Below are positions 22,590-63,989 of a DNA stretch of 64,000 bases, one piece after another. A model generated the notes under the pieces. That model saw nothing but the letters and a program-made list of their open reading frames with translations. It was not told the DNA's origin and ran no database searches. Where the stretch lies: the IMG/VR virus record IMGVR_UViG_3300032288_005424; one strand, 5' to 3'. This DNA comes from a virus. Position numbers and translations under genes: made by a program. The number at the start of each line of letters is the position of its first letter. Within the stretch, counting starts at the first letter, position 1.

Positions 22590-22618
22590 GCCTTAAACAA
22601 ACTATCTATAACCGGAAA

Positions 22619-24647: not shown

Positions 24648-24650
24648 TAT

Positions 24651-24772: not shown

Positions 24773-24791
24773 CTAATACAAATAGATCAAC

Positions 24792-24977: not shown

Positions 24978-24985
24978 ATAACTCT

Positions 24986-25477
24986 ATGAAGTATATCAAA
25001 CTATTCGAGGAACTTGCCTCTGACCTGCCTACTCTAAGGGACGTGATCGACAATAACCCCGACGATTTCGAAGATTTTAGGTCCGCTGCGGTAGAGACCG
25101 CCTCGGCGCTTGGCCTCAAGCTCTCCGGCGAGGACAGCGAACTACAGGACATGGGGCTCATTGATGACGAGGCCCTGTTCGACCGGCTCGAGTTTGATCG
25201 TGTTAAGCTCGTCTTTAACATTACCGAACTTACCCATGCTGATGCTCCAAGGCTCAGGGCCCTGGTGCAAAAGTTTCCTGGCCTCTTCACGCTTGATTAC
25301 GATGAGATTAGGCCCGCCCGCAAAGCTGTTCCAAACAAGACTATAGACCCTGAGGTTGACCTCGAGCCCGGCGAGCCGGTGGACGTCATCGTGTGGAAGG
25401 ACCAGGCTGGCAATACCGCGGTCCAGTGGGAGAGCTACTACAATAACATGTGGTTCATGCTGGACTCAGCACTTTAA
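24986..25477 (+). CDS. CTS-like N-terminus protein, tandem paralog 1
   Basis: MKYIKLFEELASD; ~52% GC; similar throughout to 25499..26017. Confidence 0.55.
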   Translation: MKYIKLFEELASDLPTLRDVIDNNPDDFEDFRSAAVETASALGLKLSGEDSELQDMGLIDDEALFDRLEFDRVKLVFNITELTHADAPRLRALVQKFPGLFTLDYDEIRPARKAVPNKTIDPEVDLEPGEPVDVIVWKDQAGNTAVQWESYYNNMWFMLDSAL

Positions 25478-25498
25478 AAAAAAGAATAATAAACCCAA

Positions 25499-26017
25499 AT
25501 GAAATACCTTAAGATATTCGAAGAATTCAATAATTCAGAACTTGCAACTCTACAGGACGTGCTCAATCCGGACCATTATAACGGGGATGACGGTCGCCTT
25601 GAGATGTACTCAGAGGCTGCGCTTGAGACCTGTAAGATGCTTGGCGTTGCACTACCTCCGGAGTTCGCAGAGATCAATGATCTTGGTCTCATTGACCAGC
25701 ATGACCTCATGGACAGCTTACCGCTGGACTCTGTGGTTGAGGTCTTTAACATACTGGCTCTCACCCACCAGAACGAGCCGAGAGTTCGTGAATTCTGCCG
25801 CCGCTTTCCTGGTATACTAGCATACGATCCGGACACCGACGAGTATCGTCGACCTGAGAGTTCACGACAGCTTGAAGAGATCTTTATTGACTCGCCGGAA
25901 TACTGGGACGAGGTTAGGGTGGTGCTCTTTGAGGACAAGAACGGGCTGAGAGCGGTTGAATGGGAGGACCAAGACTATCTAGGCTACTTCATGCTTAGAC
26001 GGGACCTTGAAAAATAA
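25499..26017 (+). CDS. CTS-like N-terminus protein, tandem paralog 2
   Basis: MKYLKIFEEFNNSE; shares LGLID...ALTH...FPG with 24986..25477. Confidence 0.55.
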   Translation: MKYLKIFEEFNNSELATLQDVLNPDHYNGDDGRLEMYSEAALETCKMLGVALPPEFAEINDLGLIDQHDLMDSLPLDSVVEVFNILALTHQNEPRVREFCRRFPGILAYDPDTDEYRRPESSRQLEEIFIDSPEYWDEVRVVLFEDKNGLRAVEWEDQDYLGYFMLRRDLEK

Positions 26018-45683: not shown

Positions 45684-46633
45684 ACTATAAAATTTTCTCA
45701 ATCGACGGCTCTAAACTAGCCAAAGACATCGCGATCCAATTGGACGCTGACGATTACGATCAAATCTTAGGCAAATTCAAGGTGGACACCTTTTCGGACG
45801 GAGAGATTAGCCCACAATTCATGGAATCAGTTAGGGACAAGAAAGTTTTCTTGGTCTCAAGCACAACAACTCCTGAAAAAATGCTGACCCTATTGCTCTC
45901 GATTGATGCTGCAAAAAGAGCTTCCGCTTCTGAAGTGATTGTTGTATTGCCGTATTTCGGTTATTCAAGACAGGATCGTAAGGAAGGCATGCGTGGAGCG
46001 ATCGGTGCAAAGTTAATGGCAGATCTTTTACAAACGGCTGGTGCAAGCAGAATCATTTCAATAGATCTACATGCTGAACAGATTCAAGGATTCTTTGATA
46101 TTCCGGTGAACATGATCCCAGGTCATGTAGCATTCGCTCCATTCATTAGGACTCTAACCTCTGCTGAATATTGTATTTGTTCGCCAGATGCAGGTGGAGT
46201 AAAAAGAGCAAGCCGCTTTTATCAAAAATTTCTGTATAAATTTCCGGACACTCACTTTGCAATGTTGTCAAAGTTGAGAGACAAGCCCAATTCAATTGAG
46301 AGAATGGATCTAATTGGAGACGTCAAGGATCGTCACGTGATCTTAGTCGATGATATGATAGACACCGGCGGAACTCTAGTAAATGCTGCTAGACTCCTAA
46401 AGGAGGGCGGCGCAAAGAAGGTAACCGCTGTAATCTCACACGGTGTGTTGTCGGGCCTAGGCCATGAAAGAATTGCTGGATCTACCGATCTTGACAAGTT
46501 GATCATTACCGATTCTATTGAGCAAATCAATAACCCCAAGATCCAGGTGGTAAGCTGTGCTCCAGCGATCGCTGCCGCAATCGAAGCAATCGTTAATTCA
46601 ATATCAATGGACAATCACTTAGAAAAAATATAA
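45680..46633 (+). CDS. prs: ribose-phosphate pyrophosphokinase (PRPP synthetase)
   Basis: FSDGEISPQF, VVLPYFGYSRQDRK, DLHAEQIQGFFDIPV, VDDMIDTGGTL; all canonical Prs motifs. Confidence 0.85.
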   Translation: MNYKIFSIDGSKLAKDIAIQLDADDYDQILGKFKVDTFSDGEISPQFMESVRDKKVFLVSSTTTPEKMLTLLLSIDAAKRASASEVIVVLPYFGYSRQDRKEGMRGAIGAKLMADLLQTAGASRIISIDLHAEQIQGFFDIPVNMIPGHVAFAPFIRTLTSAEYCICSPDAGGVKRASRFYQKFLYKFPDTHFAMLSKLRDKPNSIERMDLIGDVKDRHVILVDDMIDTGGTLVNAARLLKEGGAKKVTAVISHGVLSGLGHERIAGSTDLDKLIITDSIEQINNPKIQVVSCAPAIAAAIEAIVNSISMDNHLEKI

Positions 46634-46814
46634 TCACATGATAACTCAAGAAATCCTAGACTCTTTCGTTTACGAAACTCTTAATGGCGAATTCGAAGTC
46701 ACCGACCCGACCGAATTTGATCAAGTGCTAGTTGGTGGTCCGTTTGAAACAAAAAAAGCAGCCGAAGCTGCTTTCATTGAATTCGTTGAGAAAAACTCAA
46801 TTGAGTTCGAGTAG

Positions 46815-47564
46815 TTAAAACGTCATCTTTAAAATTAATGAAGCGGTTTCCTGAGAAGGACTAACCGCTTTATTTATGTAGTAAGGATAGCCTTGATAAC
46901 TGTAAATGTAGAGAACTCCAACTTCGTAACCCCTTTTGATTTTATAGGTTAAAGTATTCGTACTTCGCATGTTCAAGTTACTTGAGTAATCAACGTTACG
47001 ATCGCTAAAAACCGCAGGTTGATAAAGAGTGGTTGACGACAGTTTAAACAGGCCCGACTCGTATTCTAACTTAAATCTAGTGGAGAGTCTAATCGTGAAG
47101 TTATTCTTTGTCTGATCAATGCTTGACCAATAGTATTCAGGTAAAATGATTTCAGAAATGGATATGTCCCAGCCACCTCCTTCTAAAATATCATGAGCTG
47201 CTCCAAGGCCTAATGAACCTCTGAGCTTAATATTTCGCATGTACGATTTCTCGTCCTCAGTGAATGCGAGTATTTTCCAGGCTCCAAACTTACGAGCGAC
47301 ATTGCCTGTAAGATAAAGTTCATTCTCGTACAGATTCATCTTGGTCTGACCGTACGGTGACTGCTCGCTCCAACGGTATGTTGGAGTCAGGGCCCAAGTA
47401 AATTTACCAGTGTCCTTTTTGATATCAGCCTTGACCGTAACTCCGATTGAACTAAAATTTCCCCTGGAACCGTCGGCTCCAAGGGAAATTGATTTAGAGA
47501 TCGGTTGAGCGTTGCTAATACTAGTGGCCAATATAGCCAATGTAAAAAATAGTAATCCTTTCAT
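46815..47564 (-). CDS. outer-membrane beta-barrel-like protein
   Basis: Signal peptide MKGLLFFTLAILATSISNAQ; alternating amphipathic strands; C-terminal ...LKMTF with terminal Phe. Confidence 0.45.
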   Translation of the reverse strand: MKGLLFFTLAILATSISNAQPISKSISLGADGSRGNFSSIGVTVKADIKKDTGKFTWALTPTYRWSEQSPYGQTKMNLYENELYLTGNVARKFGAWKILAFTEDEKSYMRNIKLRGSLGLGAAHDILEGGGWDISISEIILPEYYWSSIDQTKNNFTIRLSTRFKLEYESGLFKLSSTTLYQPAVFSDRNVDYSSNLNMRSTNTLTYKIKRGYEVGVLYIYSYQGYPYYINKAVSPSQETASLILKMTF

Positions 47565-47570
47565 ACTTTG

Positions 47571-47879
47571 TTAGTCAGCTACAATTCTGCCTACTTGAGA
47601 TGCGACGATGTAGGTAGGCATGTAAGTGCCGTAACCGGCAACGAACGAACCCGGAGAAGTGTCGATCACCTCATCCCTGTATCTAGGTCGACAGTCCGGT
47701 AGAAGTCCAGGCTCGAGTCCATAAATAGAAAGAATTTGCGCGAGCTCAGGGTACTGTTCAACTGAGTAGTATGATCCGTCGCATAGTAGCCAATTAGACT
47801 GCCTCTTGCCCAGCGATTGAAATATATCTCCAACTGCTTTTTTTGGAATCACTCGCCTTGGCGGTATTGGTGCTGGCAT
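47571..47879 (-). CDS. phage tail collar domain protein (MdpB-like)
   Basis: WLLCDGSYYSVEQYPELAQILSIYG matches the Collar domain (W.CDG....Y..L....G). Confidence 0.5.
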   Translation of the reverse strand: MPAPIPPRRVIPKKAVGDIFQSLGKRQSNWLLCDGSYYSVEQYPELAQILSIYGLEPGLLPDCRPRYRDEVIDTSPGSFVAGYGTYMPTYIVASQVGRIVAD

Positions 47880-47889
47880 TAGTTAATGA

Positions 47890-48717
47890 TTATTTTAATA
47901 GAGCGTAGTACTCTTTGAAGTGTTTCAAGCGGTCAGGTAATCCGATTGTTCCACCGTTAACTCTTTTAGTAACTGCGGTCACAGTAGCGTCGTCTGCTCC
48001 CTTATCGCAAATTGCCCAAAGACCATTTGACTGAAAAAAGAATGCAGCAGAAGCCAAAGGATACTTTGTTGCAACTAGATCAGGATTTGAGATAACATCT
48101 TCATCAACAGTTTTGTCGAATCTAGCGTAGTTGTCCTTTCCTGTCAATTGGATGTAACCTCGACCGCGGAATTTGTAACCTTCGCCAGTTGCCTCAGCTC
48201 CATTACCCATACGGTTACCGTAAACTAGGTTAGCAATTTTTTCTGGCTTGCGCTCGTATTCTAGAGCCTTTGCGTCGGTTGGGAAGTACTTAGCGAAAAT
48301 ACCTCTTAGACCTTTCGCTCCGTAATTTAGGTTTTCTTGAACTGCCTTAAACCCGCCAGACTCATGGCCGCATTGTGCCAAGAAGTGAGCAAGTCTCAGT
48401 GGAGTTGTAATACCGAATTTTGCAGCAGTATCGGGGATCTGAGCGATCACTGAATCGGGAACGTGTCCTTTTAGATTAGCTAGTTTAAATTCGCTAGCCG
48501 GGATTGCAACTTGTGCAGCTGCTTGAGCTGGGGCTGCTCCCATTAATTTTGACCAAGAGGCCGGGCCAACAATACCGTCAGCCGTTAAGCCATTCGCGGC
48601 TTGCCATTCTTTTACCTTGGCTTCAGTACCGGGTCCAAATTGACCGTCTGCTGCAAGACCAAGTTTTTCCTGAAGTTGTTTGACTTCAGGGCCGGAAGAT
48701 CCATTCTTTAGTAACAT
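47890..48717 (-). CDS. endolysin: peptidoglycan-binding domain plus GH19 (chitinase-like) lysozyme
   Basis: PG_binding_1 repeats (GSSGPEVKQLQEKLG...DGQFGPGTEAKVKEWQ); GH19 core RLAHFLAQCGHESGGF...GRGYIQLTGKDNY. Confidence 0.7.
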   Translation of the reverse strand: MLLKNGSSGPEVKQLQEKLGLAADGQFGPGTEAKVKEWQAANGLTADGIVGPASWSKLMGAAPAQAAAQVAIPASEFKLANLKGHVPDSVIAQIPDTAAKFGITTPLRLAHFLAQCGHESGGFKAVQENLNYGAKGLRGIFAKYFPTDAKALEYERKPEKIANLVYGNRMGNGAEATGEGYKFRGRGYIQLTGKDNYARFDKTVDEDVISNPDLVATKYPLASAAFFFQSNGLWAICDKGADDATVTAVTKRVNGGTIGLPDRLKHFKEYYALLK

Positions 48718-48783
48718 ACGTGTGATTTTCTTGTTATTTATTCAAATGCAACAGGCTTAAAGAGTCTAATAAATAATACCAGT

Positions 48784-49155
48784 ATGAGTCATCATGTCAA
48801 TCTGAAAAGTGCAAAGTTAATTCTTGGTTGGTGTATTGAAAAATACGGTCCCAGCGAATACGCTAATTTAAAAACTCTAAAGATCAAACTTGATTCTAAT
48901 TTAGAGTACATTGGCCAGTACATGCAATACAACAATACAATTACTCTGAACCCAAGGTATCACAGGTCCTTATTGGGTTGGTGTTCAACCGTCATTCATG
49001 AGTACACGCATTTTCAACAGGACATGAATAAGTACCATGAATATCGGACGAGTTATGAAAATCATCCCTATGAGCTAAGTTCAAATAATCGAAGTAACCG
49101 CGACAAACTTGAGGCCAAACGATTCGTTCTAGGGAAACTTCGATCTAAAAAGTAG
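48784..49155 (+). CDS. HExxH motif small protein
   Basis: VIHEYTHF. Confidence 0.4.
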   Translation: MSHHVNLKSAKLILGWCIEKYGPSEYANLKTLKIKLDSNLEYIGQYMQYNNTITLNPRYHRSLLGWCSTVIHEYTHFQQDMNKYHEYRTSYENHPYELSSNNRSNRDKLEAKRFVLGKLRSKK

Positions 49156-49197
49156 TATAATAATAACTCAATCTTTAACTTAAAAAAACAAACAGAC

Positions 49198-49368
49198 ATG
49201 AAAAATCTATTTTTCGCGATCGCAATGATCTTCGCTGTAGCTTTGACAAGCTGTCAAAATACTGCAACTGAGGCAACATCAACTTGCCAAGACACTACCT
49301 GCGTTGACTCTACTGCAACCGCAGTTGACACGACAAGTGTTAAAGTTGATAGCGTAAACACTAAGTAA
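49198..49368 (+). CDS. small lipoprotein
   Basis: Lipobox LTSC (MKNLFFAIAMIFAVALTSCQN); TATAAT box at 49156-49161. Confidence 0.4.
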   Translation: MKNLFFAIAMIFAVALTSCQNTATEATSTCQDTTCVDSTATAVDTTSVKVDSVNTK

Positions 49369-49394
49369 TCAATTACATATTTTTACGATCTTTT

Positions 49395-49430
49395 CTGCCC
49401 GAGCCTAGGTTCGGGCAGCTTTGTTTTGGA
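49395..49430 (+). terminator. terminator
   Basis: CTGCCCGAgcctaggtTCGGGCAG plus T-rich tail. Confidence 0.55.
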
Positions 49431-49454
49431 TAAATAATAAGAAAGTCGTAAAAA

Positions 49455-51380
49455 ATGAAACAAATCCAAGCTTTATTTCTTGGGGTGTGTCTCTTTCTAA
49501 TAGGAGGCATTTCCAATCAGGTTGCTGCACAAACTTGCCCAGTTGCACCAACCTCAGCAACACCTTACGTCCTGATCGATTCGTCGTACCAGGTAGGAAC
49601 GGTCGCTTCGGGCAAAACCTATGCTAGCTTCTGCTACGCCAATCCAACTTCCACAAAAATTACAGGTCTTCAGTTTAGAGTATGGTATGATAAGACTGCA
49701 TTTGCCGGCGCAAATCCAGTTGTCACCTCAGCCAATACCAGCTGGTCGCAAAGCCTGAATTACGTGGTTAATGCAACTGAAGGTAATATCACAATTACCA
49801 TCGCGTACACAGGTTCTAGTTCAACATTCACCATTCCAGACGGAAGACAATTTACTGTTGAATTTACTCACTCAACTAACTTCCAGACGTACACTTCAAT
49901 TTCAAATCTCGCAATCACTGGAACTACAACCTTTCCAACAAGTTCTGCGAACATTAACGGTTTAGATGACACTTTGGCTCTTTATAGTTATGGTGGAGTC
50001 ATGAAGAACGTTAAGCTTAATTTTCATGGTGAATTCACAAACGTGACTGGTTCTCCAGCAAAGAATCTAACTTTGGCTTTAGAGAAAAAACCTAAGACTG
50101 GTTCTACTTGGACTCAGGTTGCCTCTTACACAACTAACACTCTAGGAAAATTCTCGTTCTCAGAAGATGTTGATACCACTTACTATGATGCACGCATTTA
50201 TGTTAAAGGGGATACTCTTGGTGTGGGTAACATCGTCTCAACTGCGGACGCTCAAAAAATCAATGACTGGATCCTAGGACTAGCTACTCCTACCGGTTTT
50301 GATTACTACACTGGAGACGTTAACGGATCAAACGGAATTACTATCGCTGACGTTTATGGCGCATTCGGAAGAATTGCTGGGCGTTTCAGTGCATGGCCTA
50401 ATTCAGTAATGGACATTCTATTCTTCTCTGCATCAGAATACGCAACGATTAACGGATCATCGACTAACTATCGCTCAACAATTCCAGGTACAACTAATCT
50501 GTACTACACAATTAGCGGAGGAGTTGTAGATTCAGTTAAATTCTATGTTGCTTCTCCTGGTGATGCTAACGGTACAGGTTACAACATGGCACGTTTGACC
50601 CCAATTCCAATCATTAATCCAGCAAATGCTAATAAATACATAATTGATGAAACTGTTGAATACGATAATTTGAATTTATCAGTAATGGAAGTCAATGTTC
50701 CTAAATTATCAGTAGAAGAAGGTAACCTAGTTAATATTCCAGTAAAGGTTTTGACTAACGGTTCAGATCGAGTAGGAGCTCTTCAATTGGCTCTAATGTA
50801 CGATCAAGCCCTATTGGAGTTTAGAGGAATTAACGGAACTGAGAAATCTCAAAAGTGGATGGCCTTCGTTAATCCATCAAACGGTGTAGTTGAATGGGGA
50901 GGATTTGATCCAACTGGCAAAGATAACTTAATGAACAGCGGCGAAGAAGTAGTTACTATTCAATTCGCAGCGCTTAAGCCTCAAGACGAATGGGGTAAAA
51001 GCCCTCTGTATACTACTCGTAAATTCGCAGGAGACGCTTCAGCTAGAGATATGGTAATCACTCCAACCAACGGAATGGTCTCAGTTTTGAGAGTCATGGG
51101 CGGAGGATTTAACATCGGCGATGAAGATTTTGAAATTTATCCTAATCCAACACAGGGAGAAATTCAGGTAGTTTTCAGCGTTAAAGAAGATACTAAAGCC
51201 ACAGTATCAGTTTATACTCTAGACGGTAAAAATGTAATAGAGATAATCAACGAACAAGTGCCCGAAGGAAAATATCGGTACTCAGCAGATCTGGGATTTT
51301 TAACACCTGGAACTTACACAGCAATTTTACAAACAGCTAGTGATAATCGAATCACTGCAAAAAGAATAATCAAAAACTAA
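49455..51380 (+). CDS. secreted protein with a type IX secretion system C-terminal sorting domain
   Basis: Signal peptide MKQIQALFLGVCLFLIGGISNQVAAQ; C-terminal ~80 aa (IYPNPTQGEIQVVF...VYTLDGKNV...GKYRYSADLGFLTPGTYTAILQT...KRIIKN) fits the T9SS CTD (TIGR04183-like); dockerin-like GDVNGSNGITIADV. Confidence 0.6.
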   Translation: MKQIQALFLGVCLFLIGGISNQVAAQTCPVAPTSATPYVLIDSSYQVGTVASGKTYASFCYANPTSTKITGLQFRVWYDKTAFAGANPVVTSANTSWSQSLNYVVNATEGNITITIAYTGSSSTFTIPDGRQFTVEFTHSTNFQTYTSISNLAITGTTTFPTSSANINGLDDTLALYSYGGVMKNVKLNFHGEFTNVTGSPAKNLTLALEKKPKTGSTWTQVASYTTNTLGKFSFSEDVDTTYYDARIYVKGDTLGVGNIVSTADAQKINDWILGLATPTGFDYYTGDVNGSNGITIADVYGAFGRIAGRFSAWPNSVMDILFFSASEYATINGSSTNYRSTIPGTTNLYYTISGGVVDSVKFYVASPGDANGTGYNMARLTPIPIINPANANKYIIDETVEYDNLNLSVMEVNVPKLSVEEGNLVNIPVKVLTNGSDRVGALQLALMYDQALLEFRGINGTEKSQKWMAFVNPSNGVVEWGGFDPTGKDNLMNSGEEVVTIQFAALKPQDEWGKSPLYTTRKFAGDASARDMVITPTNGMVSVLRVMGGGFNIGDEDFEIYPNPTQGEIQVVFSVKEDTKATVSVYTLDGKNVIEIINEQVPEGKYRYSADLGFLTPGTYTAILQTASDNRITAKRIIKN

Positions 51381-51397
51381 AAAAAACGGAAATCTGT

Positions 51398-51736
51398 ATG
51401 TCAGACGAACAAAACGTAGAGACCAATGACGGAACTTGGTCAGGATTAAAGAAAACAATAATTGGCGTTGCAACTACGGCAATTATGGCAGGTGGAACTT
51501 ACTTCACAACCACTCTATTCGGAGGCCACGATAAGGAAGAAACTAAAACTGAGCAAGCTGCACCAGCTGCTGCGCCGGTTATCAATCTAAACGTTGATAA
51601 TTCTTCTAAGAACGTTGCAAACGGTGGAGGAACAACCACCGTGATCAAAGAAAAAACAATCGTTGAAAAACCAGCGGCCGCTAAAGAAGAAAAGAAAGTG
51701 GAAAAGAAGAGCGAAACTGAGGATTCACCTTGGTAA
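51398..51736 (+). CDS. small membrane protein
   Basis: One TM helix (IIGVATTAIMAGGTYFTTTLFGG). Confidence 0.4.
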   Translation: MSDEQNVETNDGTWSGLKKTIIGVATTAIMAGGTYFTTTLFGGHDKEETKTEQAAPAAAPVINLNVDNSSKNVANGGGTTTVIKEKTIVEKPAAAKEEKKVEKKSETEDSPW

Positions 51737-51886
51737 TATGAAATACGTTCTTTTGACGCTTGGCATCGAGGCTGTCCTGTTTTTGACATGGGTTTTCTTT
51801 GAAGCTAAAAGACAAATAAAGGAAGAAGAGTCTGGGCGGTTTTGGCCGCCCGACTTTTTCGACCGTTAAAAAAACAAATCGTAAAA

Positions 51887-52291
51887 ATGAAAAAATGGTT
51901 TTCAGGTAGTAATGAATATGTAAAGGTTGAAGACAAGAACCGATTCTATTATATGCTACAACAAATGCAAGCTAATCGTTGGAGAATTACTGCCATCGTA
52001 TTAGGTTTATTCACATTGATTATTGTTGGCATTAATGCCGGAGTATTCATGGGAGCTACAATCAATGAAGATTGGAAAGAGATGTTGCTAATTCTATTAG
52101 GAGCTTTCGTTGGTAACCTAAATAAAGTGGTTGACTACTGGTTCAACTCTGAAGACAGAGATAAAATGCTGATTCAAAAGGTTGACGAAGAGGATGGTTT
52201 CTCATTATCAAATATTGCAGATCCAAACGCTAACCAAGTAAGTTCTATCAAGGTTGAGTCTGAATTATCGGACGAAGAGCCTCTAGCTTGA
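51887..52291 (+). CDS. membrane protein
   Basis: Start set at MKKWFSG, after the hairpin at 51834-51859; TM RITAIVLGLFTLIIVGINAGVFM. Confidence 0.4.
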   Translation: MKKWFSGSNEYVKVEDKNRFYYMLQQMQANRWRITAIVLGLFTLIIVGINAGVFMGATINEDWKEMLLILLGAFVGNLNKVVDYWFNSEDRDKMLIQKVDEEDGFSLSNIADPNANQVSSIKVESELSDEEPLA

Positions 52292-52344
52292 TTTTTAAAA
52301 AAATAAGGGCGGTCTTTGATCGCCCTTTTTACTATTCACAAATT

Positions 52345-53061
52345 ATGAAAAATATTATATGCTTATTGCTAGGCTTGGCTTTGGCCTTCTCAGCTAAATC
52401 CCAAACGATCGGCAGCATTAAAACCGACAAATACAAGGCAAGTTTTGAAAAAGAAGCCTCGCTTGACTCTATGCCAGAGTACACTGACACTCTTAAAATT
52501 CCAATTCAATTACTAAAGATCGGAATCAATGAAGAGCTTTATGAAATGTATCCGGAATTAAAGGACAAGCGAGTAGGACTTGGCGTTACGAACATTGTGC
52601 TTGAGTATCTTGAAATGACCAACCGTTTTGAATTCACAGAAGACAAAAAGGAAATTAAAGAAAGAATGGTTAATCAATTCAAGGCAAGCGACAAAGGCTT
52701 TACCGAGAATAAAATTGACGGCCGCGGAAAGGTTAAGTTGGCCAAGTACTTTGTCTATATCGAAGTTTACGATTTTTCAGTGTCAGAAGACGAGGTTGTA
52801 AAAGCAAAAGGGCAGGCAAAAGCAACTCAAACGACTAGGCTAGGATTACAGATCAAATTCGTTGATGCTGAATCTGGAGCAATCGTCATGGGTTCTGGAT
52901 TGGGAGAAGCTTCTACTGTCAAGATGTCAACCATATTAGATGACGTTGACGAAATTAAGTTCAACCAGTCGACAATAGGAATTACGACTAAGAAATCTCT
53001 TGAATACGCAACTTATCATGTGGTTCAAAAGCTAATAAAGAAAGGTGTTTTTAAACAATAA
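52345..53061 (+). CDS. CsgG-like lipoprotein (curli secretion-channel family) - tentative
   Basis: Lipoprotein-type signal MKNIICLLLGLALAFSAKSQ; GLGVTNIVLEYLEMTNRFEFTE and LQIKFVDAESGAIVMGSG resemble CsgG core segments (eye alignment only). Confidence 0.35.
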   Translation: MKNIICLLLGLALAFSAKSQTIGSIKTDKYKASFEKEASLDSMPEYTDTLKIPIQLLKIGINEELYEMYPELKDKRVGLGVTNIVLEYLEMTNRFEFTEDKKEIKERMVNQFKASDKGFTENKIDGRGKVKLAKYFVYIEVYDFSVSEDEVVKAKGQAKATQTTRLGLQIKFVDAESGAIVMGSGLGEASTVKMSTILDDVDEIKFNQSTIGITTKKSLEYATYHVVQKLIKKGVFKQ

Positions 53062-54695
53062 TGAAAAGGATACTTGTAACATTAACTGTATTATGCATGG
53101 CTTTGTCAGCAATGGCTCAAAGCTTTACCTACAGCTATGTGAATCCCTGTAATGGAAACATTGAAAAGATAGTGATTCCTTCCGGATCAAATTCGGTTGC
53201 CGTGACTTACTATAATCAAATACGAGTTTTCAGCGAAGCTGATTTCTCAAATGGAACGTTTGACGCATGGGCAAGTTCAGTGTTTAATTCATACAGCCAA
53301 GTTTCTCCATGTGCAGGTATCGGAACAACTACGGTCGTTTCACTGACTCAAAACACAGCAATGACGATGATCTCAATAATGGGATCGTTAACCACAATTA
53401 GCGATGCGTTAGGCAGTGTTAATTCGTTGGGAGGATTAACTGCGTCCGTTACTAGCGGGAGCGGTGGGTCAGATGGATCTAAAGGAAGTAACAACTCTAA
53501 AAAGACTAAATCAAATGACGCAGGTGGACAAGGAACATCGCAATCAACAGGTTCCTCTAATTCTTCCGGTGGAAGTTCTCAATCTACTGGTTCTACTTCG
53601 ACAAGCGGGCAGGGCTCAAGCGGATCAAGTTCAACTACTGGATCAACTGGAAGCTCAACTCAATCTTCTACAGGAACACCACAATCTCAGAGTGGTTCAA
53701 CTCAAGGAGGAAGTTCGTCGTCTCAGCCGACTCTAAGCGGAGGATCGACTAGCGGTTCTAGTTCAAGCGGTTCAAATTCAGGAAGCTCGACTACTGGTTC
53801 CGGATCTTCAAGTTCAACCAGCGGATCGAGCTCAGGAGGATCAACAAATGGCTCAAGCTCAGGATCCTCAAGTTCAACTGACGGATCAACCAGCGGATCG
53901 GGCTCAGGAGGATCAAGCACTGGCTCAGGATCTTCTAGTGGAGGTTCAACTAAAACAGAAGCAGCGGCTGAAGACAAAAAAACCGATGCACTAAGCGGTT
54001 CAAATAATGCAGTTAGATCAACACCCACTAACGGAACTGGAAATTCAAAGAATGGATTAAGGCCGATGGTTGTCGCAGGTAGCGATTTAGCCGGATTTAA
54101 TTTTAAAGACGGGGATGTTGCGTTCGGTGGAAAGATTAACGGCAACTACACGTCAGTTAGATACGATCAACGCCGATCTCATGGATTGTTATTTGACTAC
54201 ACAACCGCGATCAAAGGACCTAACATTACCGGTTTTTACGCATGGATGAAACCGAAAAGAATCACATTACTTTCAAATACATTGACTATCGGATTTGAAG
54301 GCAAGGGCTCAATTTATAATAGCGTTGCATTCGGACAGATGAGAGATATTGGAAAATCTAAAAGACTAAAGCTTGTTTACATGGCATCCGCTTCCGTTGG
54401 CGAAGTGTATGACGAAGCTTTTTTAGGAACCGCTCTAATTGCTGGAGGAATGTACGACTGGAGAGTCAGCAAAAAGCTAGATCTTAAACTTATGGCTCTT
54501 GGAGTTTACGCTCCATACGTGAGCTACTACAACGATATTTTACTACAGTCTCCTTATGTTATTTTGCCAAGCATTGGAACTAATATTAAGGTGACAAAGA
54601 ATTTTAGATTCAACATAAACTGGGGAGGAGCGTGGGCCATAAATCAAAATGTGTTGAACTACACGATAACAATTGGAACAAGACTTGTGCTTTAA
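53061..54695 (+). CDS. secreted protein with a long S/G/T-rich low-complexity linker and a C-terminal beta-rich domain
   Basis: Signal peptide MKRILVTLTVLCMALSAMAQ; ~180 aa of SGS/TGS repeats; C-terminal ~200 aa with alternating hydrophobic strands. Confidence 0.5.
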   Translation: MKRILVTLTVLCMALSAMAQSFTYSYVNPCNGNIEKIVIPSGSNSVAVTYYNQIRVFSEADFSNGTFDAWASSVFNSYSQVSPCAGIGTTTVVSLTQNTAMTMISIMGSLTTISDALGSVNSLGGLTASVTSGSGGSDGSKGSNNSKKTKSNDAGGQGTSQSTGSSNSSGGSSQSTGSTSTSGQGSSGSSSTTGSTGSSTQSSTGTPQSQSGSTQGGSSSSQPTLSGGSTSGSSSSGSNSGSSTTGSGSSSSTSGSSSGGSTNGSSSGSSSSTDGSTSGSGSGGSSTGSGSSSGGSTKTEAAAEDKKTDALSGSNNAVRSTPTNGTGNSKNGLRPMVVAGSDLAGFNFKDGDVAFGGKINGNYTSVRYDQRRSHGLLFDYTTAIKGPNITGFYAWMKPKRITLLSNTLTIGFEGKGSIYNSVAFGQMRDIGKSKRLKLVYMASASVGEVYDEAFLGTALIAGGMYDWRVSKKLDLKLMALGVYAPYVSYYNDILLQSPYVILPSIGTNIKVTKNFRFNINWGGAWAINQNVLNYTITIGTRLVL

Positions 54696-54697
54696 AT

Positions 54698-56998
54698 ATG
54701 AAAAATATTATTCTAATAATACTTGCATTCGCTCTACTATTCCCTAAATTAGCGGAGGCTCAAGCGACCTCAGTTAATTTAGGGACTTCGAGTACCTCAG
54801 CCCTGTCCGCTACTTATAATACTTGGACAAAGGTTGACCCTAATATTACAATAACTGCAAATGGAACCATCTCTGGATTCAGGGTTCAAATTTCGCAAAC
54901 CTATACAAGCGGAGATCAATTACGATCTACTGGGACTCTACCTTCTGGAGTTAGCTCTTCTTTTAATACGACCACCGGTATACTTGCATTTAGCGGAACA
55001 GCATCCGCTTCTGACTGGCAAACGGTATTGAGAGGAGTCGAGTTTAGATCGACCACTACTACGTGCTATGCACTACAGAGGAGAGTAACGTTCGTAGCTG
55101 GAGCAGTTTTCTATAATCCTCTTACTGAACATTTTTATGAATATGTATCTGGCTCAATAACCTTTACAAACTCAGTAACCTCTGCTCAAGCTCGATCTTA
55201 TTTTGGTAGAGCAGGATATTTAGCAACAATGTCATCAGAGGCTGAAAATAATTTTGTTTGGAGACTAATGGCCAGCGATTGCTGGTTCGGTGCATCTGAC
55301 GAAGTTGGCTTGGTAAATTCAGCAAAGGGAACCACTGCATTCGCTAGTCAAGCTGCGGTTGAGGGTAAATGGCACTGGATCTCAGGTCCCGAAAAAGGGA
55401 TCAATTTTTCAAATGGTAATGCAGGAGCTGGCCCAACTACCGTATCTGGACAATACGCTAAATGGGCGCCTGGCGAACCCAACAACTCAGGTGGCGAGCA
55501 TTACGGTCAATTCTATTCAGCCAATCTAGGCCAGTGGAATGACTTACCTAATACGAATCTCGGAGGATACCTTTGCGAGTATGGGGACATGCCCGGAGAT
55601 ATTACGAGCAGCGTTACCATACTGACTAGGGATATTGAAATTAGTAATTCTTCAAGTGGCTATATCACTGGTGGAAACATCAATGTGTGTTCTGGCTCAA
55701 ACAGTACAACTCTAACTCTAACCAATTTAACAGGGTCAGTTGTACGTTGGGAATCTTCGCTTGATAATTTCTTTACGGCTGGAACAACGATTTCAAGTAC
55801 CTCATCGACCTTAACTATTACTAACTTAACTAGGACCACTTACTATAGAGCAATCGTAAATTCAACGAGTCCAGTCTCGTGCACAGGATTAGCGACGTCA
55901 AGCGTATTTCTATCAGTCAAACCGACCAGAGCCGGCACAGTATTCGCTGCGAACAATTCAATATGTTCAGGCGGCCTAGCTGAATTGACCCTGTCCGGAC
56001 AACAGGGTAACGTGAATAAGTGGCAACGTTCGATCAACAACATAAATTGGACGGATATTACAAACACTAGCACGAGCTTGACTGAAACCATTAATACAGC
56101 TGGAACTTATTACTATCGAGTTGAGGTGCAGACTCCAAGCTGCGGAAGTGCAGTATTTTCAGATTCAAAAATAATTACTGTGACTTCTGGAACTCCACCG
56201 ACCGGTGGATCAGTTTCGTCGGCAGTTCATCCAACCTCGACAAACTCAGGAACGTTGACGTTAAGCGGCCATACTGGAACAATTGTTAAATGGCAAAGAT
56301 CAACAAATTCCGGCGTAACATGGACAGACATCGCAAATACTGGAACGACTAACTCATACTCAAATCAGACTGACGGTACCATGTTCAGAGCTCAATTGAC
56401 TAGCGGTACCTGCGGAAACGCATTCTCTTCTGCTGGCACAATCACAGTTGCTCCATTCACTCACTCCGGTTCTGTGTACAACGCTGAGAATACTGGAATT
56501 CAAAACGTCGTTGTCAATCTACTTCATAAATTAAAAACTGATTTAGTTTACAGTGCATTGAGCTCTTCAACCACCGCTGCAAACGGCAGTTACTCGTTCT
56601 CCACATCATTGAGCGTTAACAAATACGATTTCATAATCAGCATTAACTCAGCAGCTGTTGATTCGCCGACGTCGGCTGACGCTGAGTCTTTTAATCAAAA
56701 GGTACTTTACCAATCGTTCGTCTCGAAAGACTATTATCGAATGGACGCTAATTCAAATGGAAAGTTATCAATCACTGATGTATTCTTAGTGTATGCTAAA
56801 AAGAGTGGATTAATTTCCACGTGGCCTTACTCTACCCCAAATTACAGGATATTTACAGCATCGCAATGGTCGGCGATAAACTCAAGCGCGAGTAATTTAG
56901 TTGCAACATATCCTGGGACTCAGGCGCTAACCACACCAACCTTGACTTCCGGTGGAACTACTAATTTCTATATCGTTAAAACCGGCTTAATAAAATAA
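54698..56998 (+). CDS. large secreted protein with a C-type lectin domain and repeated beta-rich (Ig-like) modules
   Basis: Signal peptide MKNIILIILAFALLFPKLAEAQ; WHWISGPEKG...YAKWAPGEPNNSGGEHYGQFYSANLGQWNDLPN...YLCEY matches the CTLD WIGL/EPN/WND motifs. Confidence 0.55.
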   Translation: MKNIILIILAFALLFPKLAEAQATSVNLGTSSTSALSATYNTWTKVDPNITITANGTISGFRVQISQTYTSGDQLRSTGTLPSGVSSSFNTTTGILAFSGTASASDWQTVLRGVEFRSTTTTCYALQRRVTFVAGAVFYNPLTEHFYEYVSGSITFTNSVTSAQARSYFGRAGYLATMSSEAENNFVWRLMASDCWFGASDEVGLVNSAKGTTAFASQAAVEGKWHWISGPEKGINFSNGNAGAGPTTVSGQYAKWAPGEPNNSGGEHYGQFYSANLGQWNDLPNTNLGGYLCEYGDMPGDITSSVTILTRDIEISNSSSGYITGGNINVCSGSNSTTLTLTNLTGSVVRWESSLDNFFTAGTTISSTSSTLTITNLTRTTYYRAIVNSTSPVSCTGLATSSVFLSVKPTRAGTVFAANNSICSGGLAELTLSGQQGNVNKWQRSINNINWTDITNTSTSLTETINTAGTYYYRVEVQTPSCGSAVFSDSKIITVTSGTPPTGGSVSSAVHPTSTNSGTLTLSGHTGTIVKWQRSTNSGVTWTDIANTGTTNSYSNQTDGTMFRAQLTSGTCGNAFSSAGTITVAPFTHSGSVYNAENTGIQNVVVNLLHKLKTDLVYSALSSSTTAANGSYSFSTSLSVNKYDFIISINSAAVDSPTSADAESFNQKVLYQSFVSKDYYRMDANSNGKLSITDVFLVYAKKSGLISTWPYSTPNYRIFTASQWSAINSSASNLVATYPGTQALTTPTLTSGGTTNFYIVKTGLIK

Positions 56999-57010
56999 AA
57001 ACAATAACAC

Positions 57011-57493
57011 ATGAAACAGCTTATTTTCTTTTTAGTTCTCATACTTGGAGTGCAGCTTCAAGCATTCAGTCAAAACTGCGTCAAGGTCGATACAGTCTAC
57101 ACAACCGCTAAGATAAAGGAATTAAAGAATCGCAGGATCACATTCGGGATTCGCCAGATCGCAGAAGAAGAACTTTCCAATAAGTACCAAATCTGCCAGG
57201 AAGGTGAGCCCATAGGGATCGAGGTTGCCTATGTTGGAACTCCAAAAAAGAGCTTCACGTTTGGCGGAGTAGGCGGAGCTGTTCAAACTACTGAGGTTCT
57301 TGTTAAGCTTCACATGGCCGGTCTTGTGTATGACGGTAATGGAGCAGAAGAAACTTCCGCACAAATGATGTTCATTCAATTGAATGACGATCAGATTCCA
57401 TTCGACAAGACGACTCTATCTACTGCTCTAAAGAGAGCGATCGCCGATGCAGTAAAAAAGATGACCACGGTTAAACCAATTGAGGGAAATTGA
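57011..57493 (+). CDS. secreted hypothetical protein
   Basis: Signal peptide MKQLIFFLVLILGVQLQAFSQ. Confidence 0.45.
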   Translation: MKQLIFFLVLILGVQLQAFSQNCVKVDTVYTTAKIKELKNRRITFGIRQIAEEELSNKYQICQEGEPIGIEVAYVGTPKKSFTFGGVGGAVQTTEVLVKLHMAGLVYDGNGAEETSAQMMFIQLNDDQIPFDKTTLSTALKRAIADAVKKMTTVKPIEGN

Positions 57494-57517
57494 GTAGAAT
57501 AGTCTAAAATTCTATTC

Positions 57518-57736
57518 ATGGATCAATCTAACATTAAGGTTGGCTTGGAAAACTCAACAGCAATTGTATGTGACGAGTGCGGCAGCCAAACATTCAAGGA
57601 GGTTACTTACCTTAGACGTATTTCTCGATTATTGACCGGTGCTCCGGAAGACATGATCGTGCCAATTCCTGCGTTTGCATGCTCGAGCTGCAATCACGTA
57701 AACGAACAATTCCAATTAAAGGATCAAAAAAAGTAA
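57518..57736 (+). CDS. zinc-ribbon small protein
   Basis: CDECG...CSSCNH. Confidence 0.4.
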   Translation: MDQSNIKVGLENSTAIVCDECGSQTFKEVTYLRRISRLLTGAPEDMIVPIPAFACSSCNHVNEQFQLKDQKK

Positions 57737-57742
57737 ATTAAG

Positions 57743-58018
57743 ATGATAACAGTAACTGACTACTGGGCTCCATGGTGCGGCCCTTGTAAAATGATGATGC
57801 CTACTATTGAAAAACTGGCAGAGGAATACAACGTTCCGGATAGCAAAGTTCAAATAAAAAAGGTAAACGTTGATGAAGACTCCGAAACTGCAGCTAAACT
57901 TGGAATCCGTTCCATTCCTACTCTAGTATTTGAAAAGAACGGAGATGAGGTTGATCGTAAAAGCGGATCTTTACCCTATGAGAAAATTAAAGAAATAATT
58001 GAAAATCTGAAAGGCTAA
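57743..58018 (+). CDS. thioredoxin
   Basis: WAPWCGPCK active-site motif. Confidence 0.75.
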   Translation: MITVTDYWAPWCGPCKMMMPTIEKLAEEYNVPDSKVQIKKVNVDEDSETAAKLGIRSIPTLVFEKNGDEVDRKSGSLPYEKIKEIIENLKG

Positions 58019-58708: not shown

Positions 58709-58939
58709 ATGAAAAATAAATTAAAACAAATCGCAATATTCGTCCTGTGCTTAGCGATAGGTTTCGAATCAATACATTTGGCTTTCTGGCTAATGAACAT
58801 GCCTAGCACTCCGCTATTTTGGCTTGGAATCCTGGTCCTTACGGCAATTGCCTTTATCTCAGGAACCTATGTTTGGCAAAAGGTTGGAGCTTGGATCGAA
58901 AAAAAGTTCGAAGAAACTGAGAATTCTAATCATCATTAA
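58709..58939 (+). CDS. small two-TM membrane protein
   Basis: Two hydrophobic helices. Confidence 0.4.
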   Translation: MKNKLKQIAIFVLCLAIGFESIHLAFWLMNMPSTPLFWLGILVLTAIAFISGTYVWQKVGAWIEKKFEETENSNHH

Positions 58940-58967: not shown

Positions 58968-59804
58968 ATGAACAAAGGAAAATTGACACTAGCCGTACTC
59001 GGCTTTTTAATCGCATTGACGTTAATGATTAACTCTTGCGAACGCATTGACGCTGGCCATGTTGGAGTTAAGGTAAATCTCTACGGAACCGGTAAGGGAG
59101 TTGACGATGTTACTGAATGTACTGGACTTGTTTTTTACAATCCGCTTTCAACTAAGATCTATGAGTTTCCAACCTACATCCAACACAAGGAATACACCGA
59201 GGACCAATCATTTGTGATTAACTCAAAGGACGGTTCCGAATTCCATGTAAGTCCAATCGTTAACTATTCAGTACAGCGCGATAAAGTTCCGGCTATATTC
59301 GCAAAGTATCGAAGAAGTTTAGAATCGATTGAGGAAGGTTTCTTAAAGACAACAATATACGATGCCTTTCGTATGACTGCTAATTCCTACACAGCTGAGG
59401 AATTAATTTCGAATCGTCAAACTTTTGAAACCAAGGTACGCGCTAAATTAGACACCGACCTCTTAAGAGAAGGTTTCTTGATTAGCCAATTGACCTCTAA
59501 CTTGGGTTATCCTGAAACATTCAAGAAGGCTATTGAAGCCAAGAATAATGCAGTACAGACCGCATTGACTGCCGAGAATCAAGTCAAAACCGCTGAGGCC
59601 CAGGCTAAAATCAAGGTTGCAACTGCCGAGGGTAATGCTCAAGCAATGCTGACCCAAGCAAAGGCTGAGGCTGAAGCAAACCGTGTAAAACAGTCTACCT
59701 TGACTCCGATGCTACTACAACAAATGTGGATTGAGAAATGGAACGGTGCTTTACCGACGACTCAATTAGGAGCAGGTACAAACATGCTATACAATGTCAA
59801 GTAA
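58968..59804 (+). CDS. SPFH / band-7 (prohibitin/HflKC-like) membrane protein
   Basis: N-terminal TM anchor, then an SPFH-like domain and a long Ala/Glu/Lys/Gln coiled-coil (AEAQAKIKVATAEGNAQAMLTQAKAEAEANR). Confidence 0.6.
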   Translation: MNKGKLTLAVLGFLIALTLMINSCERIDAGHVGVKVNLYGTGKGVDDVTECTGLVFYNPLSTKIYEFPTYIQHKEYTEDQSFVINSKDGSEFHVSPIVNYSVQRDKVPAIFAKYRRSLESIEEGFLKTTIYDAFRMTANSYTAEELISNRQTFETKVRAKLDTDLLREGFLISQLTSNLGYPETFKKAIEAKNNAVQTALTAENQVKTAEAQAKIKVATAEGNAQAMLTQAKAEAEANRVKQSTLTPMLLQQMWIEKWNGALPTTQLGAGTNMLYNVK

Positions 59805-59978: not shown

Positions 59979-60063
59979 GGAGAGGTGGCAGAGCGGTTGA
60001 ACGCGGCGGTCTTGAAAACCGTTTTAGGTAACACTAACGGGGGTTCGAATCCCTCCCTCTCCG
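59979..60063 (+). tRNA. tRNA-Ser (anticodon UGA), type II with long variable arm
   Basis: GGAGAGG acceptor, D-arm GCAGAGCGGTTGAACGC, anticodon loop CTTGAAA, long variable arm, T-arm GGGGGTTCGAATCCCTC, 3' CCTCTCC-G. Confidence 0.8.
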
Positions 60064-60079
60064 CAAAATAACAATACGA

Positions 60080-63583: not shown

Positions 63584-63660
63584 TGGTGCGGTAGCTCAGA
63601 TGGTAGAGCACAGGACTGAAAATCCTGGTGTCGGCAGTTCGATCCTGCCCCGCACCACCA
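63584..63660 (+). tRNA. tRNA-Phe (anticodon GAA), CCA encoded
   Basis: GGTGCGG-TA-GCTCAGATGGTAGAGC-ACAGGACTGAAAATCCTG-GTGTC-GGCAGTTCGATCCTGCC-CCGCACC-A-CCA. Confidence 0.85.
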
Positions 63661-63745
63661 AAAAAAGATTATGAAAATGAAACGATTAGTAATGAAACGA
63701 AAACGATAAGGTCCCGATGACTCTCATTGAGCTGCGGGACAATAA

Positions 63746-63822
63746 GACTTCGTAACTCAGTTGGTTAGAGTACCATACTTTTAATATGGGAGTCACAGGT
63801 TCGAGTCCTGTCGGGGTCACCA
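63746..63822 (+). tRNA. tRNA-Lys (anticodon UUU), CCA encoded
   Basis: Acceptor GACTTCG/CGGGGTC (two G-U pairs), D-arm ACTCAGTTGGTTAGAGT, anticodon arm CCATA-CTTTTAA-TATGG, T-arm ACAGGTTCGAGTCCTGT. Confidence 0.7.
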
Positions 63823-63830
63823 ATAAAAAT

Positions 63831-63904
63831 TGCGGGATGCGTAGAAAAGGCTATCTCGTCAGTCTCATAAGCTGAAGTTCCCGGTTCGAGTCCGGGTCCC
63901 GCAA
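63831..63904 (+). tRNA. putative tRNA-Met or tRNA-Ile2 (anticodon CAU), irregular D-arm
   Basis: Acceptor TGCGGGA/TCCCGCA, anticodon arm TCAGT-CTCATAA-GCTGA, T-arm CCCGGTTCGAGTCCGGG; D-arm spacing is non-canonical. Confidence 0.5.
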
Positions 63905-63915
63905 CTAAAAAATAC

Positions 63916-63989
63916 ACGGGTGTGGTGCAATGGTAGCATTCCGGTCTCCAAAACCGTCGATGGGAGTTCGAATCTCTCCACCCGTGCCA
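63916..63989 (+). tRNA. tRNA-Trp (anticodon CCA), CCA encoded
   Basis: Acceptor ACGGGTG/CACCCGT, D-arm GTGCAATGGTAGCAT, anticodon loop CTCCAAA, T-arm GGGAGTTCGAATCTCTC, discriminator G plus CCA. Confidence 0.75.

Follow-up and report, generated by a model that had tools for sequence, protein, structure and literature searches.

The gene block described here lies at positions 46815-57493 of a 64,000-nt window, the whole stretch of DNA analysed, from IMG/VR virus record IMGVR_UViG_3300032288_005424, and its products are predicted to act on the envelope of a Bacteroidota host, probably a Flavobacterium-like one. Bacteroidota phages are abundant in lakes and seas, and how they handle the host envelope, in exclusion, outer-membrane rupture or adhesion, is largely obscure. 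A related case is 'Cryophage', a phage with a Bacteroidota host that carries type-A cargo for type IX secretion (by the T9SS), the one report of phage-encoded cargo of this kind, which was called a unique occurrence (Bellas et al. 2020, PMC7468147). The 'Cryophage' cargos are variable enzymes (an endoglucanase, a GH39 enzyme and a PA14 protein) encoded in flexible islands, and it was proposed that they are secreted by the host and perhaps serve superinfection exclusion (PMC7468147). The locus in the window differs from this case in that it includes a single cohesin cargo, whose gene is a constant part of a block of several conserved genes.

A further point of contact is csgG, listed without context as the 'virulence gene' of highest abundance on phage contigs from reefs (Silveira et al. 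2020, PMC7003362). It was treated as a bacterial virulence factor, and its gene family may be that of the CsgG-like gene in the window. Gene context and loss of the lipobox were left undescribed, as were a paralogue, a linked barrel gene and linked T9SS cargo (PMC7003362). What is counted in viromes as the virulence gene 'csgG' may be part of an envelope module of phages and unrelated to curli.

TraT, responsible for surface exclusion by IncF plasmids, and phage lipoproteins that block receptors, such as Llp of T5, are likewise products of mobile elements that reside in the outer membrane and stop further entry, and a similar exclusion by the phage block is putative. However, TraT is a single lipoprotein that forms an alpha-helical membrane barrel, and it has no sequence relation to the block. 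The block was not found described in the literature on phages with T9SS, cohesin or lectin genes, on CsgG in Bacteroidetes phages, or on sorting domains of Flavobacterium phages. It is an arrangement, not described so far, of known domain families, of the kind of phage genes whose action is on the envelope of the host. A large and mostly uncultured phage clade has the block as a constant feature, and in it a hijacked host secretion tag is joined to outer-membrane parts that are the phage's own.

A conserved core and a variable left flank

Thirteen plausible open reading frames (ORFs) are present in the interval, 3 on the minus strand and 10 on the plus strand (Table 1), and all ORFs named in a preliminary description of this DNA exist where it placed them or within a few bases. 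That description counted eleven consecutive genes for proteins with a Sec signal or lipobox. When the N-termini were classed by a simple hydrophobicity reading of the translations, a cleavable-signal-like N-terminus was seen in 7 of the 13 ORFs (starting at 46815, 49198, 49455, 52345, 53061, 54698 and 57011) and a membrane anchor in 3 (51398, the 43-aa ORF at 51738-51869, and 51887-52291). The count thus holds only in part, as in the remaining three, the collar protein, the endolysin and the 123-aa HExxH protein at 48784, this reading revealed no export signal.

At least 585 IMG/VR viral contigs contain a relative of the gene for the 238-aa CsgG-like protein, which served as the anchor, and the best 80 loci were examined. 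These are the closest relatives, with anchors that are 63-98% identical, and several are near-duplicates. Presence of a gene was scored by tblastn at E 1e-4 against the window proteins, with the loci that have enough flank as the denominator. On contigs of 60 kb to 591 kb, the common order is the cohesin protein with a T9SS C-terminal sorting domain (CTD), two small transmembrane proteins (TM1 and TM2), the CsgG-like protein, the barrel protein, the lectin/Ig protein, and one or two small CsgG-fold paralogues. The same order is found from the 160-kb genome of a cultured phage to contigs of 349 kb and 591 kb. Because this order is seen again in many contigs independent of each other, chance does not explain the run of exported proteins.

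The CTD protein, TM1, the barrel protein and the small paralogue are near-universal partners of the anchor, and the left-flank genes other than the endolysin are rarely linked to them (Table 1). The conserved core is therefore 49455-57493, all of whose products carry either a Sec-type signal or a membrane anchor, and 46815-49368 is a variable left flank in which the endolysin is the sole recurrent member. The eleven genes were originally taken to be one module, but those for the DUF481 barrel, for the collar and HExxH proteins and for the 56-aa lipoprotein are accessory and lie outside the core.

Table 1. Features of the block and its surroundings, with their occurrence in the related loci.
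Feature	Position	Strand	Length (aa)	Description	Loci with gene	Median identity to window (%)
DUF481 outer-membrane beta-barrel	46815-47564	-	249	Signal-like N-terminus, C-terminal Phe	6/43, within 9 kb of anchor	
Tail-collar domain protein	47571-47879	-	102	Pfam Collar 28.3 bits; no hydrophobic N-terminus	1/43	
Endolysin	47890-48717	-	275	PG_binding_1 and Glyco_hydro_19 (GH19, lysozyme/chitinase-like); phrog_181, 1.5e-70; no signal	35/43, within 9 kb of anchor, either side or strand	73
HExxH protein (HEYTH)	48784-49155	+	123	No signal	7/43	
Lipoprotein	49198-49368	+	56	Thr/Ser/Asp-rich; lipobox LTSC	7/80	
Terminator-like hairpin	49395-49418	+		10-bp stem, 7 G-C pairs, T-run; just 5' of core block; pattern match		
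Core gene 1, CTD protein	49455-51380	+	641	Signal peptide, cohesin domains, type-A T9SS C-terminal sorting domain	72/72	49
Core gene 2, TM1	51398-51736	+	112	Bitopic, one transmembrane segment at about 18-42	78/78	58
Micro-ORF	51738-51869	+	43	Single transmembrane segment; begins one base past TM1 stop codon		
TM2	51887-52291	+	134	Two transmembrane helices, acidic C-terminal tail; true start ATG 51887	46/71, up- or downstream of anchor	78
Terminator-like hairpin	52305-52327	+		Between TM2 and CsgG-fold gene; pattern match		
Core gene 3, CsgG-like protein (anchor)	52345-53061	+	238	CsgG superfamily; signal-peptidase-I type signal, no lipobox		69
Core gene 4, barrel protein	53061-54695	+	544	Signal peptide, N-domain, S/G/T linker, predicted C-terminal outer-membrane barrel	65/66	48
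Lectin protein, variable and adhesin-like	54698-56998	+	766	Signal peptide, C-type lectin domain, three Ig_7 repeats		39
Core gene 5, small paralogue	57011-57493	+	160	Shorter CsgG-fold paralogue; signal peptide, two invariant Cys	61/61	42
Five tRNA genes (Ser, Phe, Lys, Met, Trp)	59979-60064 and 63585-63989			Downstream of block		

The most conserved products are the membrane and periplasmic parts, with median identities of 78% for TM2 and 69% for the CsgG-fold protein, and the least conserved are the predicted surface parts, namely the CTD protein (49%), the barrel protein with its hypervariable linker (48%) and the lectin protein (39%). This gradient fits a fixed machine bearing exposed, fast-evolving parts. 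In many loci the lectin gene is detectable only through a C-terminal module that it shares with the cohesin gene.

The core can be followed into more distant relatives. In marine contigs with anchors that are only 31-33% identical, the CsgG-like gene is followed by relatives of the N-domain of the barrel protein and of the 160-aa protein, and in one of these contigs a cohesin/CTD gene is upstream of the CsgG-like gene. A rearranged form of the block occurs in a Flavobacterium-binned contig (L008, 2930-8966), with all genes on one strand. It begins with a small paralogue, a cohesin-like protein without CTD, a lipoprotein, TM1 and TM2, and continues with two further small membrane proteins and the CsgG-like gene, after which come a 139-aa barrel with a C-terminal Phe and, as the last gene, the endolysin.

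Phage origin of the region

One flank of the block contains topoisomerase II subunits (phrog_543, 1e-195) and a phosphoribosyl pyrophosphate synthetase, and the other a thioredoxin, a metallophosphoesterase and five tRNAs. The G+C content of the interval is 0.39-0.43, the same as in most of the window (background about 0.39-0.43 outside two G+C-rich islands). Among 50,697 deposited phage records, the Immutovirus phages vB_FspM_immuto of Flavobacterium (160 kb) are the sole relatives, and in them gp013-gp019 are the same genes and are placed between nuclease/ribonucleotide reductase genes and thioredoxin. Flavobacterium sp. LMO8 is the host of immuto, which is the closest relative in culture, and related contigs are binned with metagenome-assembled genomes (MAGs) of Flavobacterium, Sediminibacterium and Bacteroidetes. 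As both flanks carry phage genes, the G+C content matches that of the window, and the region is syntenic with immuto and with viral contigs of 60-591 kb, the evidence supports phage DNA over a stretch of host chromosome beside a prophage end, a possibility that had been raised for this region and is not borne out by the flanks. Conservation in related phages, which had been put forward as a check, is seen in the 80 loci and in immuto gp013-gp019. A cultured Immutovirus exists, and therefore the role of the block is directly testable.

A megablast search of 46000-58000 against deposited phages matched nothing, PHROGs gave zero matches for the core genes, and for these the only NCBIfam match is to the T9SS CTD.

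The CsgG-fold protein and its paralogue

The 238-aa protein itself has no match in Pfam, NCBIfam or PHROG, and PDB sequence searches with the protein and with its family profile gave nothing meaningful. Its homologues, clustered at 90% identity, make up about 5,800 clusters, the 120 matches listed all being 73-95% identical to it, and an exhaustive search of representatives at 50% identity gave 226 relatives. In an alignment of 39 relatives that includes distant members (A1), 21 match Pfam CsgG (PF03783; best 1.9e-17), with P0179 (35.9 bits) and P0162 (27.2 bits) above the cut-off of 20.8, and some match LpoB as well. Comparison of the family profile with E. coli CsgG, using a sequence verified as identical to PDB 3x2r, gave an hhalign probability of 94% and E 1.4e-7 over 225 columns. 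The AlphaFold2 (AF2) model, with a predicted local distance difference test (pLDDT) score of 76, has CsgG as its top Foldseek match (E 1.2e-7). CsgG homology and fold are established by these Pfam, profile and structural matches.

The protein had been described as a CsgG-like lipoprotein, and the second half of that description does not hold. Its N-terminus, MKNIICLLLGLALAFSAKSQ, is of the signal-peptidase-I type and the lipobox cysteine is absent. The signals of close relatives end in ...A(N/K)AQ and distant members have an L-x-G-C lipobox, which the window clade replaced by a signal-peptidase-I site. Both hairpin insertions of CsgG (PDB 4uv3, 6l7a, 6lqh) are present and are modelled as long beta-hairpins by AF2, but by the hhalign alignment they fall short of those of CsgG by ∼5 and ∼10 residues, and the first is charged (SEDEVVKAKGQAK). 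In the constriction loop the Tyr-Pro pair is kept, aligned to a nearly invariant Y69 and an invariant P70, whereas Asn55 and Phe56 of CsgG align to a Lys and a gap within a conserved YPELKDKRVG. Distant members of the family resemble CsgG in passing the Pfam threshold and in being lipoproteins, while the window clade has no lipid anchor, and a shorter paralogue accompanies its CsgG-fold protein, together with a predicted 12-strand barrel that is a protein of its own. None of the neighbouring genes matches CsgA, CsgB, CsgE or CsgF in Pfam or NCBIfam.

Several bacterial relatives (P0186, P0202, P0223, P0229, P0235 and P0249) fuse a CsgG-like domain to other sequences, read by inspection as caspase-like at the C-terminus or Ser/Thr-kinase-like at the N-terminus. 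When examined for a link to the barrel, these fusions were uninformative.

The 160-aa product of core gene 5 is a shorter paralogue, a relation that the preliminary description did not note, and it lacks the helical insert. An alignment of this protein and three orthologues (A3) matches A1 in hhalign with a probability of 96.8% and E 2.5e-10, and a PDB search with the 160-aa profile gave nothing meaningful. Two contigs (L017 and L018) have two genes of ∼150 aa at the position of the paralogue, which are presumed copies.

A comparable pair is also found in cellular genomes. In an Ignavibacteriales MAG (L011, 6977-8280), a gene for a CsgG-like lipoprotein is directly followed by a 204-aa gene that matches the 160-aa family (96.2%, E 2.2e-9), and the neighbours are cellular, read by inspection as TruA-like and EamA-like proteins. 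This cellular pair suggests a unit of two cellular genes as the possible ancestor of the phage CsgG-fold pair. A Nitrospinota MAG (L015, 6121-8786) has, in this order, a paralogue, a CsgG-like gene and a 326-aa outer-membrane barrel ending in Phe. The latter was considered as a homologue of the phage barrel and ruled out (hhalign probability 0.04). The Nitrospinota locus adjoins a protein read as carrying a caspase-like domain.

The placement of a small CsgG-fold protein beside an outer-membrane barrel, seen with the 139-aa barrel of L008 and the 326-aa barrel of the Nitrospinota MAG, recalls the PelC-PelB and LptE-LptD pairs, where a lipoprotein of this fold in the outer membrane works together with a separate beta-barrel. 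However, there is no sequence relation to PelB or LptD, and the phage barrel is a predicted 12-strand one with an N-terminal stalk. Unlike the Pel and Lpt systems, the block includes no polysaccharide or lipopolysaccharide genes, and gene adjacency is the only pointer to a partnership here.

The 544-aa barrel protein

An alignment of forty homologues (A2) divides the 544-aa protein into three parts. The N-domain (residues 20-120) is conserved, with two invariant Cys, C30 and C84, which would form a disulfide. The linker at about 116-306, a long disordered stalk, is hypervariable, composed of 81% Ser, Gly and Thr over residues 120-300, and no tandem repeats were found in it. The C-terminal 210 residues are well conserved across the alignment. 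AF2 places 12-13 antiparallel strands at 336-543, with a barrel pLDDT of mostly about 60-83 and two loops of low confidence. The S/G/T-rich linker and beta-rich C-terminus that had been noted for this protein are thus both confirmed.

Foldseek searches with the barrel gave outer-membrane barrels only. The full-length autotransporter EstA (3kvn) is the top match (E 4e-7), and Intimin, NalP, EspP and FapF are also included, while the best geometric fits are the 12-strand KdgM, NanC and PcoB, with TM-scores of 0.63-0.71 (0.68-0.71 for KdgM and NanC). From the model, the 544-aa protein is predicted to be an integral 12-strand outer-membrane barrel with an autotransporter-like layout. It had been suggested that this protein might be the cargo of a channel or a surface fibril, but an integral outer-membrane component would not be a channel substrate, and an amyloid fibril is unlikely as well.

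The layout of signal, N-terminal domain, linker and C-terminal 12-strand barrel is that of type Va autotransporters such as EstA, and an N-terminal domain, disordered linker and 12-strand barrel are also found in FapF. The likeness to type Va is incomplete. Residues 295-544 have no Pfam match even at E 10, the autotransporter beta-domain family included, AF2 models no helix before or inside the barrel, and small-porin geometry fits best. The 'passenger' would also be only about 100 residues in length, on an S/G/T stalk of about 190 residues. The N-domain could be either displayed outside or tethered in the periplasm.

ORFs of 90 aa (53464-53736, plus strand) and 140 aa (53723-54145, minus strand) are present inside the linker coding region and are most likely by-products of its biased composition rather than genes.

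The cohesin and lectin proteins

The 641-aa protein has an N-terminal Sec-type signal, MKQIQALFLGVCLFLIGGISNQVAAQ, with a hydrophobic core score of 2.75. It includes a Cohesin domain at residues 411-542 (43.7 bits, above threshold), a weak cohesin-like region near the N-terminus (about 60-155; E 0.0035) and, at about 200-385, a beta-sandwich and a ∼120-aa module with an EF-hand-like loop. Residues 561-641 of 641 are a type-A T9SS sorting domain, as had been proposed, and two curated thresholds are passed, Por_Secre_tail PF18962 at 34.8 bits (cut-off 27) and TIGR04183 at 35.1 bits (cut-off 23). The sorting domain is also found in the orthologues from six contigs (L002-L005, L017 and L018).

The lectin protein was earlier given as 788 aa. 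Its C-type lectin domain and Ig-like repeats are supported, but the start is not. The true start is ATG 54698, where the signal peptide begins, giving 766 aa, and the upstream GTG 54632 is a product of the ORF-listing rule. The signal peptide is followed by an N-terminal domain, the lectin domain, three Ig_7 repeats (32.4 bits), a SdrD_B/CarboxypepD_reg-like sandwich and the ∼120-aa module. Lectin_C (PF00059) matches the window protein at 20.6 bits, just below the cut-off of 22.6, and the PDB C-type lectins CEL-I and langerin match it at phmmer E 2e-4. The EPN and WND motifs of the Ca/sugar site are present (...WAPGEPNNSGGEHYGQFYSANLGQWNDLPN...), also in immuto gp013 and the L002 orthologue. 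PF00059 is carried by the L002 and L003 orthologues, and C-type lectin is also the annotation given to immuto gp013. Orthologues vary in domain content and in length, from 328 to 769 aa.

The ∼120-aa module is common to the cohesin protein (about 255-385) and the C-terminus of the lectin protein (about 640-766). Its EF-hand-like loop (DVNGSNGITIAD, DANSNGKLSITD, DVNYDGNISVSD) follows D-x-N-x-[DNS]-G-x-[IL]-[ST]-x-x-D and resembles a dockerin repeat. There is no Pfam match to dockerin, and a profile of the shared module finds none in PDB. A cohesin-dockerin pairing between the two proteins is therefore only a lead, suggested by the loop motif.

The small membrane proteins

TM1 has a short acidic cytoplasmic N-terminus and, from a reading of its sequence, an Ala/Pro/Lys/Glu-rich periplasmic tail that ends in Pro-Trp. 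The tail is of low complexity and has no coiled-coil region, which argues against half of a two-component spanin. The only lipoprotein that might complete such a pair (49198) sits apart from TM1 and is found in 7 of the 80 loci, and no PHROG spanin match was obtained. A 42-aa homologue of the micro-ORF is called in the distant contig L002, and tblastn detects the micro-ORF in only 1 of the 80 loci. A further terminator-like hairpin (51833-51852) is located within its 3′-end.

TM2 is the most conserved product of the block. It has 2518 homologue clusters, with at least 74% identity in all 120 matches listed, and the copy in L002 is 91% identical. Profile searches gave no family assignment, and PADLOC only a weak '2TM effector'.

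Proposed role and alternatives

The block may consist of phage genes whose products remodel the envelope and surface of the infected Bacteroidota cell, a reading to which we give a probability of about 0.5. The genus Flavobacterium has a T9SS, and the cohesin protein would be carried across the outer membrane by that of the host and anchored on the surface like normal type-A cargo. The 544-aa protein would insert as a barrel, with its N-domain on the stalk in autotransporter fashion or kept in the periplasm. The 238-aa and 160-aa proteins may assemble in a ring-like manner on the inner side of the outer membrane and partner the barrel, a partnership modelled on PelC-PelB and LptE-LptD and involving no CsgG-type pore, and TM1 with its extended tail and TM2 would tie the assembly to the inner membrane. 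The lectin protein would bind glycans and join the cohesin protein via the module common to both. The net outcome would be an altered cell surface during infection. The benefit would most likely be that further phage are excluded or that progeny are kept from re-adsorbing to debris, with adhesion as a variant. Surface remodelling by exported proteins had already been suggested for this block and fits the evidence best, though not by way of a CsgG-like channel.

A more ambitious form of the proposal, in which the TM1/TM2 tether, one or two CsgG-fold rings, the autotransporter-like barrel and the host T9SS together build a lectin/cohesin coat as a trans-envelope apparatus, appears unlikely as a whole. 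If true, a self-contained surface-assembly machine would be present in a whole clade of Bacteroidota phages with genomes of 160 kb to about 590 kb.

Several points count against envelope remodelling. Every functional step in it is one that we infer. Exclusion genes tend to be sporadic, and for such genes it would be unusual to be conserved as strongly as TM2 and the CsgG-fold protein are. The AF2 model of the 544-aa protein has a low overall confidence (mean pLDDT 52), the lectin protein has no sorting domain and no evident route over the outer membrane, and an endolysin within 9 kb in 35 of 43 loci is compatible with a role in lysis.

The recurrent endolysin and the small membrane proteins make lysis the main rival, though a rather improbable one. 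The block would be a complex that breaches the outer membrane after endolysin action, in phages with no recognisable canonical spanin. TM1, the micro-ORF and TM2 would be a holin, an antiholin or an inner-membrane spanin-like protein, and the CsgG-fold proteins and barrel the outer-membrane part. TM2 is small with two helices and a charged tail, a holin-like shape, TM1 is bitopic and N-in and extends a tail into the periplasm as an i-spanin does, and Pfam and PHROG profile searches find no spanin or holin family elsewhere in the region. The endolysin is adjacent in the window, L007 and L018, and shares a strand with the membrane, CsgG-like and barrel genes of L008, but it is usually on the opposite strand or several kb off, on either side. 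TM2 is missing from 25 of 71 loci, TM1 lacks a coiled-coil region, and the CsgG-fold protein of the window clade lacks the lipid anchor that an o-spanin needs. Nor is there an obvious place in lysis for a 641-aa T9SS cargo with cohesins in every locus or for a large, variable lectin/Ig adhesin-like protein. Adhesion or nutrient capture, which we consider unlikely, would give the cohesin scaffold and EPN-type lectin the task of gluing infected cells to polysaccharide particles, algae or neighbours, to the benefit of phage spread or of feeding of the infected cell, and the other genes would only place these proteins. In its favour are the cohesin domains, the mannose-type EPN motif of the C-type lectin, Ig_7 repeats of a kind typical of surface adhesins in Bacteroidota, and the variation of the lectin protein in size and domains. 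However, the lectin part is the least conserved, with many loci showing the shared C-terminal module only, and the block lacks any carbohydrate-active enzyme. This explanation overlaps with envelope remodelling and differs from it in the assumed benefit only.

A curli-like system, with the 238-aa protein as a nonameric CsgG-type pore and the 544-aa or another product as cargo or fibril, had been suggested originally and is very unlikely. CsgG is indeed the best structural and profile match, the 238-aa protein has both hairpin insertions, and its conserved Y69 and P70 align with the constriction-loop Tyr-Pro. Against a channel are the loss of the lipobox in the window clade and of the constriction Asn55 and Phe56, the short hairpins with charged runs (SEDEVVKAKGQAK), the lack of a CsgA/B/E/F-like neighbour in profile searches, and a supposed cargo that is itself a predicted integral outer-membrane barrel. 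PelC, LptE, FlgT and TraT have the same fold and are not beta-barrel pores. That the products are virion fibres or decoration proteins with secretion-like N-termini, the earlier alternative, or that the region is host chromosome beside a prophage end, is hardly credible. A collar-domain gene is nearby, and Ig-like and lectin domains are found on some phage particles. However, seven products have cleavable Sec-type signals and would leave the cytoplasm, where tailed-phage particles assemble, and the block is placed among replication and nucleotide-metabolism genes rather than structural genes in both the window and immuto. A host origin is at odds with the phage genes on both flanks, the matching G+C content, and the block being kept in all 80 loci examined among the viral contigs with the anchor.

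Left-flank genes and other features

The products of the left flank are largely as first described. The outer-membrane barrel with C-terminal Phe matches Pfam DUF481 (PF04338) over residues 26-224 at 24.1 bits, above the gathering cut-off of 21.1, and the domain matches of the collar protein and endolysin and the lipobox of the 56-aa lipoprotein agree with their assignments (Table 1). The 123-aa HExxH protein has a weak match to the DUF6782 metallopeptidase (E 7e-4), which is under the cut-off.

A scan for sigma-70 promoters, which excludes Bacteroidota promoters, gave 25 sites against 24.3 expected from shuffles, and an Rfam scan found tRNAs only. The two G+C-rich islands of the window (∼10000-13000 and 22000-26000; 0.52-0.56) include few long ORFs and no Rfam family. 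Like the window, phage immuto has a tRNA cluster in the equivalent region. Envelope-directed genes run on beyond the interval, with a 76-aa membrane protein at 58709-58939. It is followed by a Band_7/SPFH protein at 58968-59804, in which the N-terminus ...LTLMINSC resembles a lipobox.

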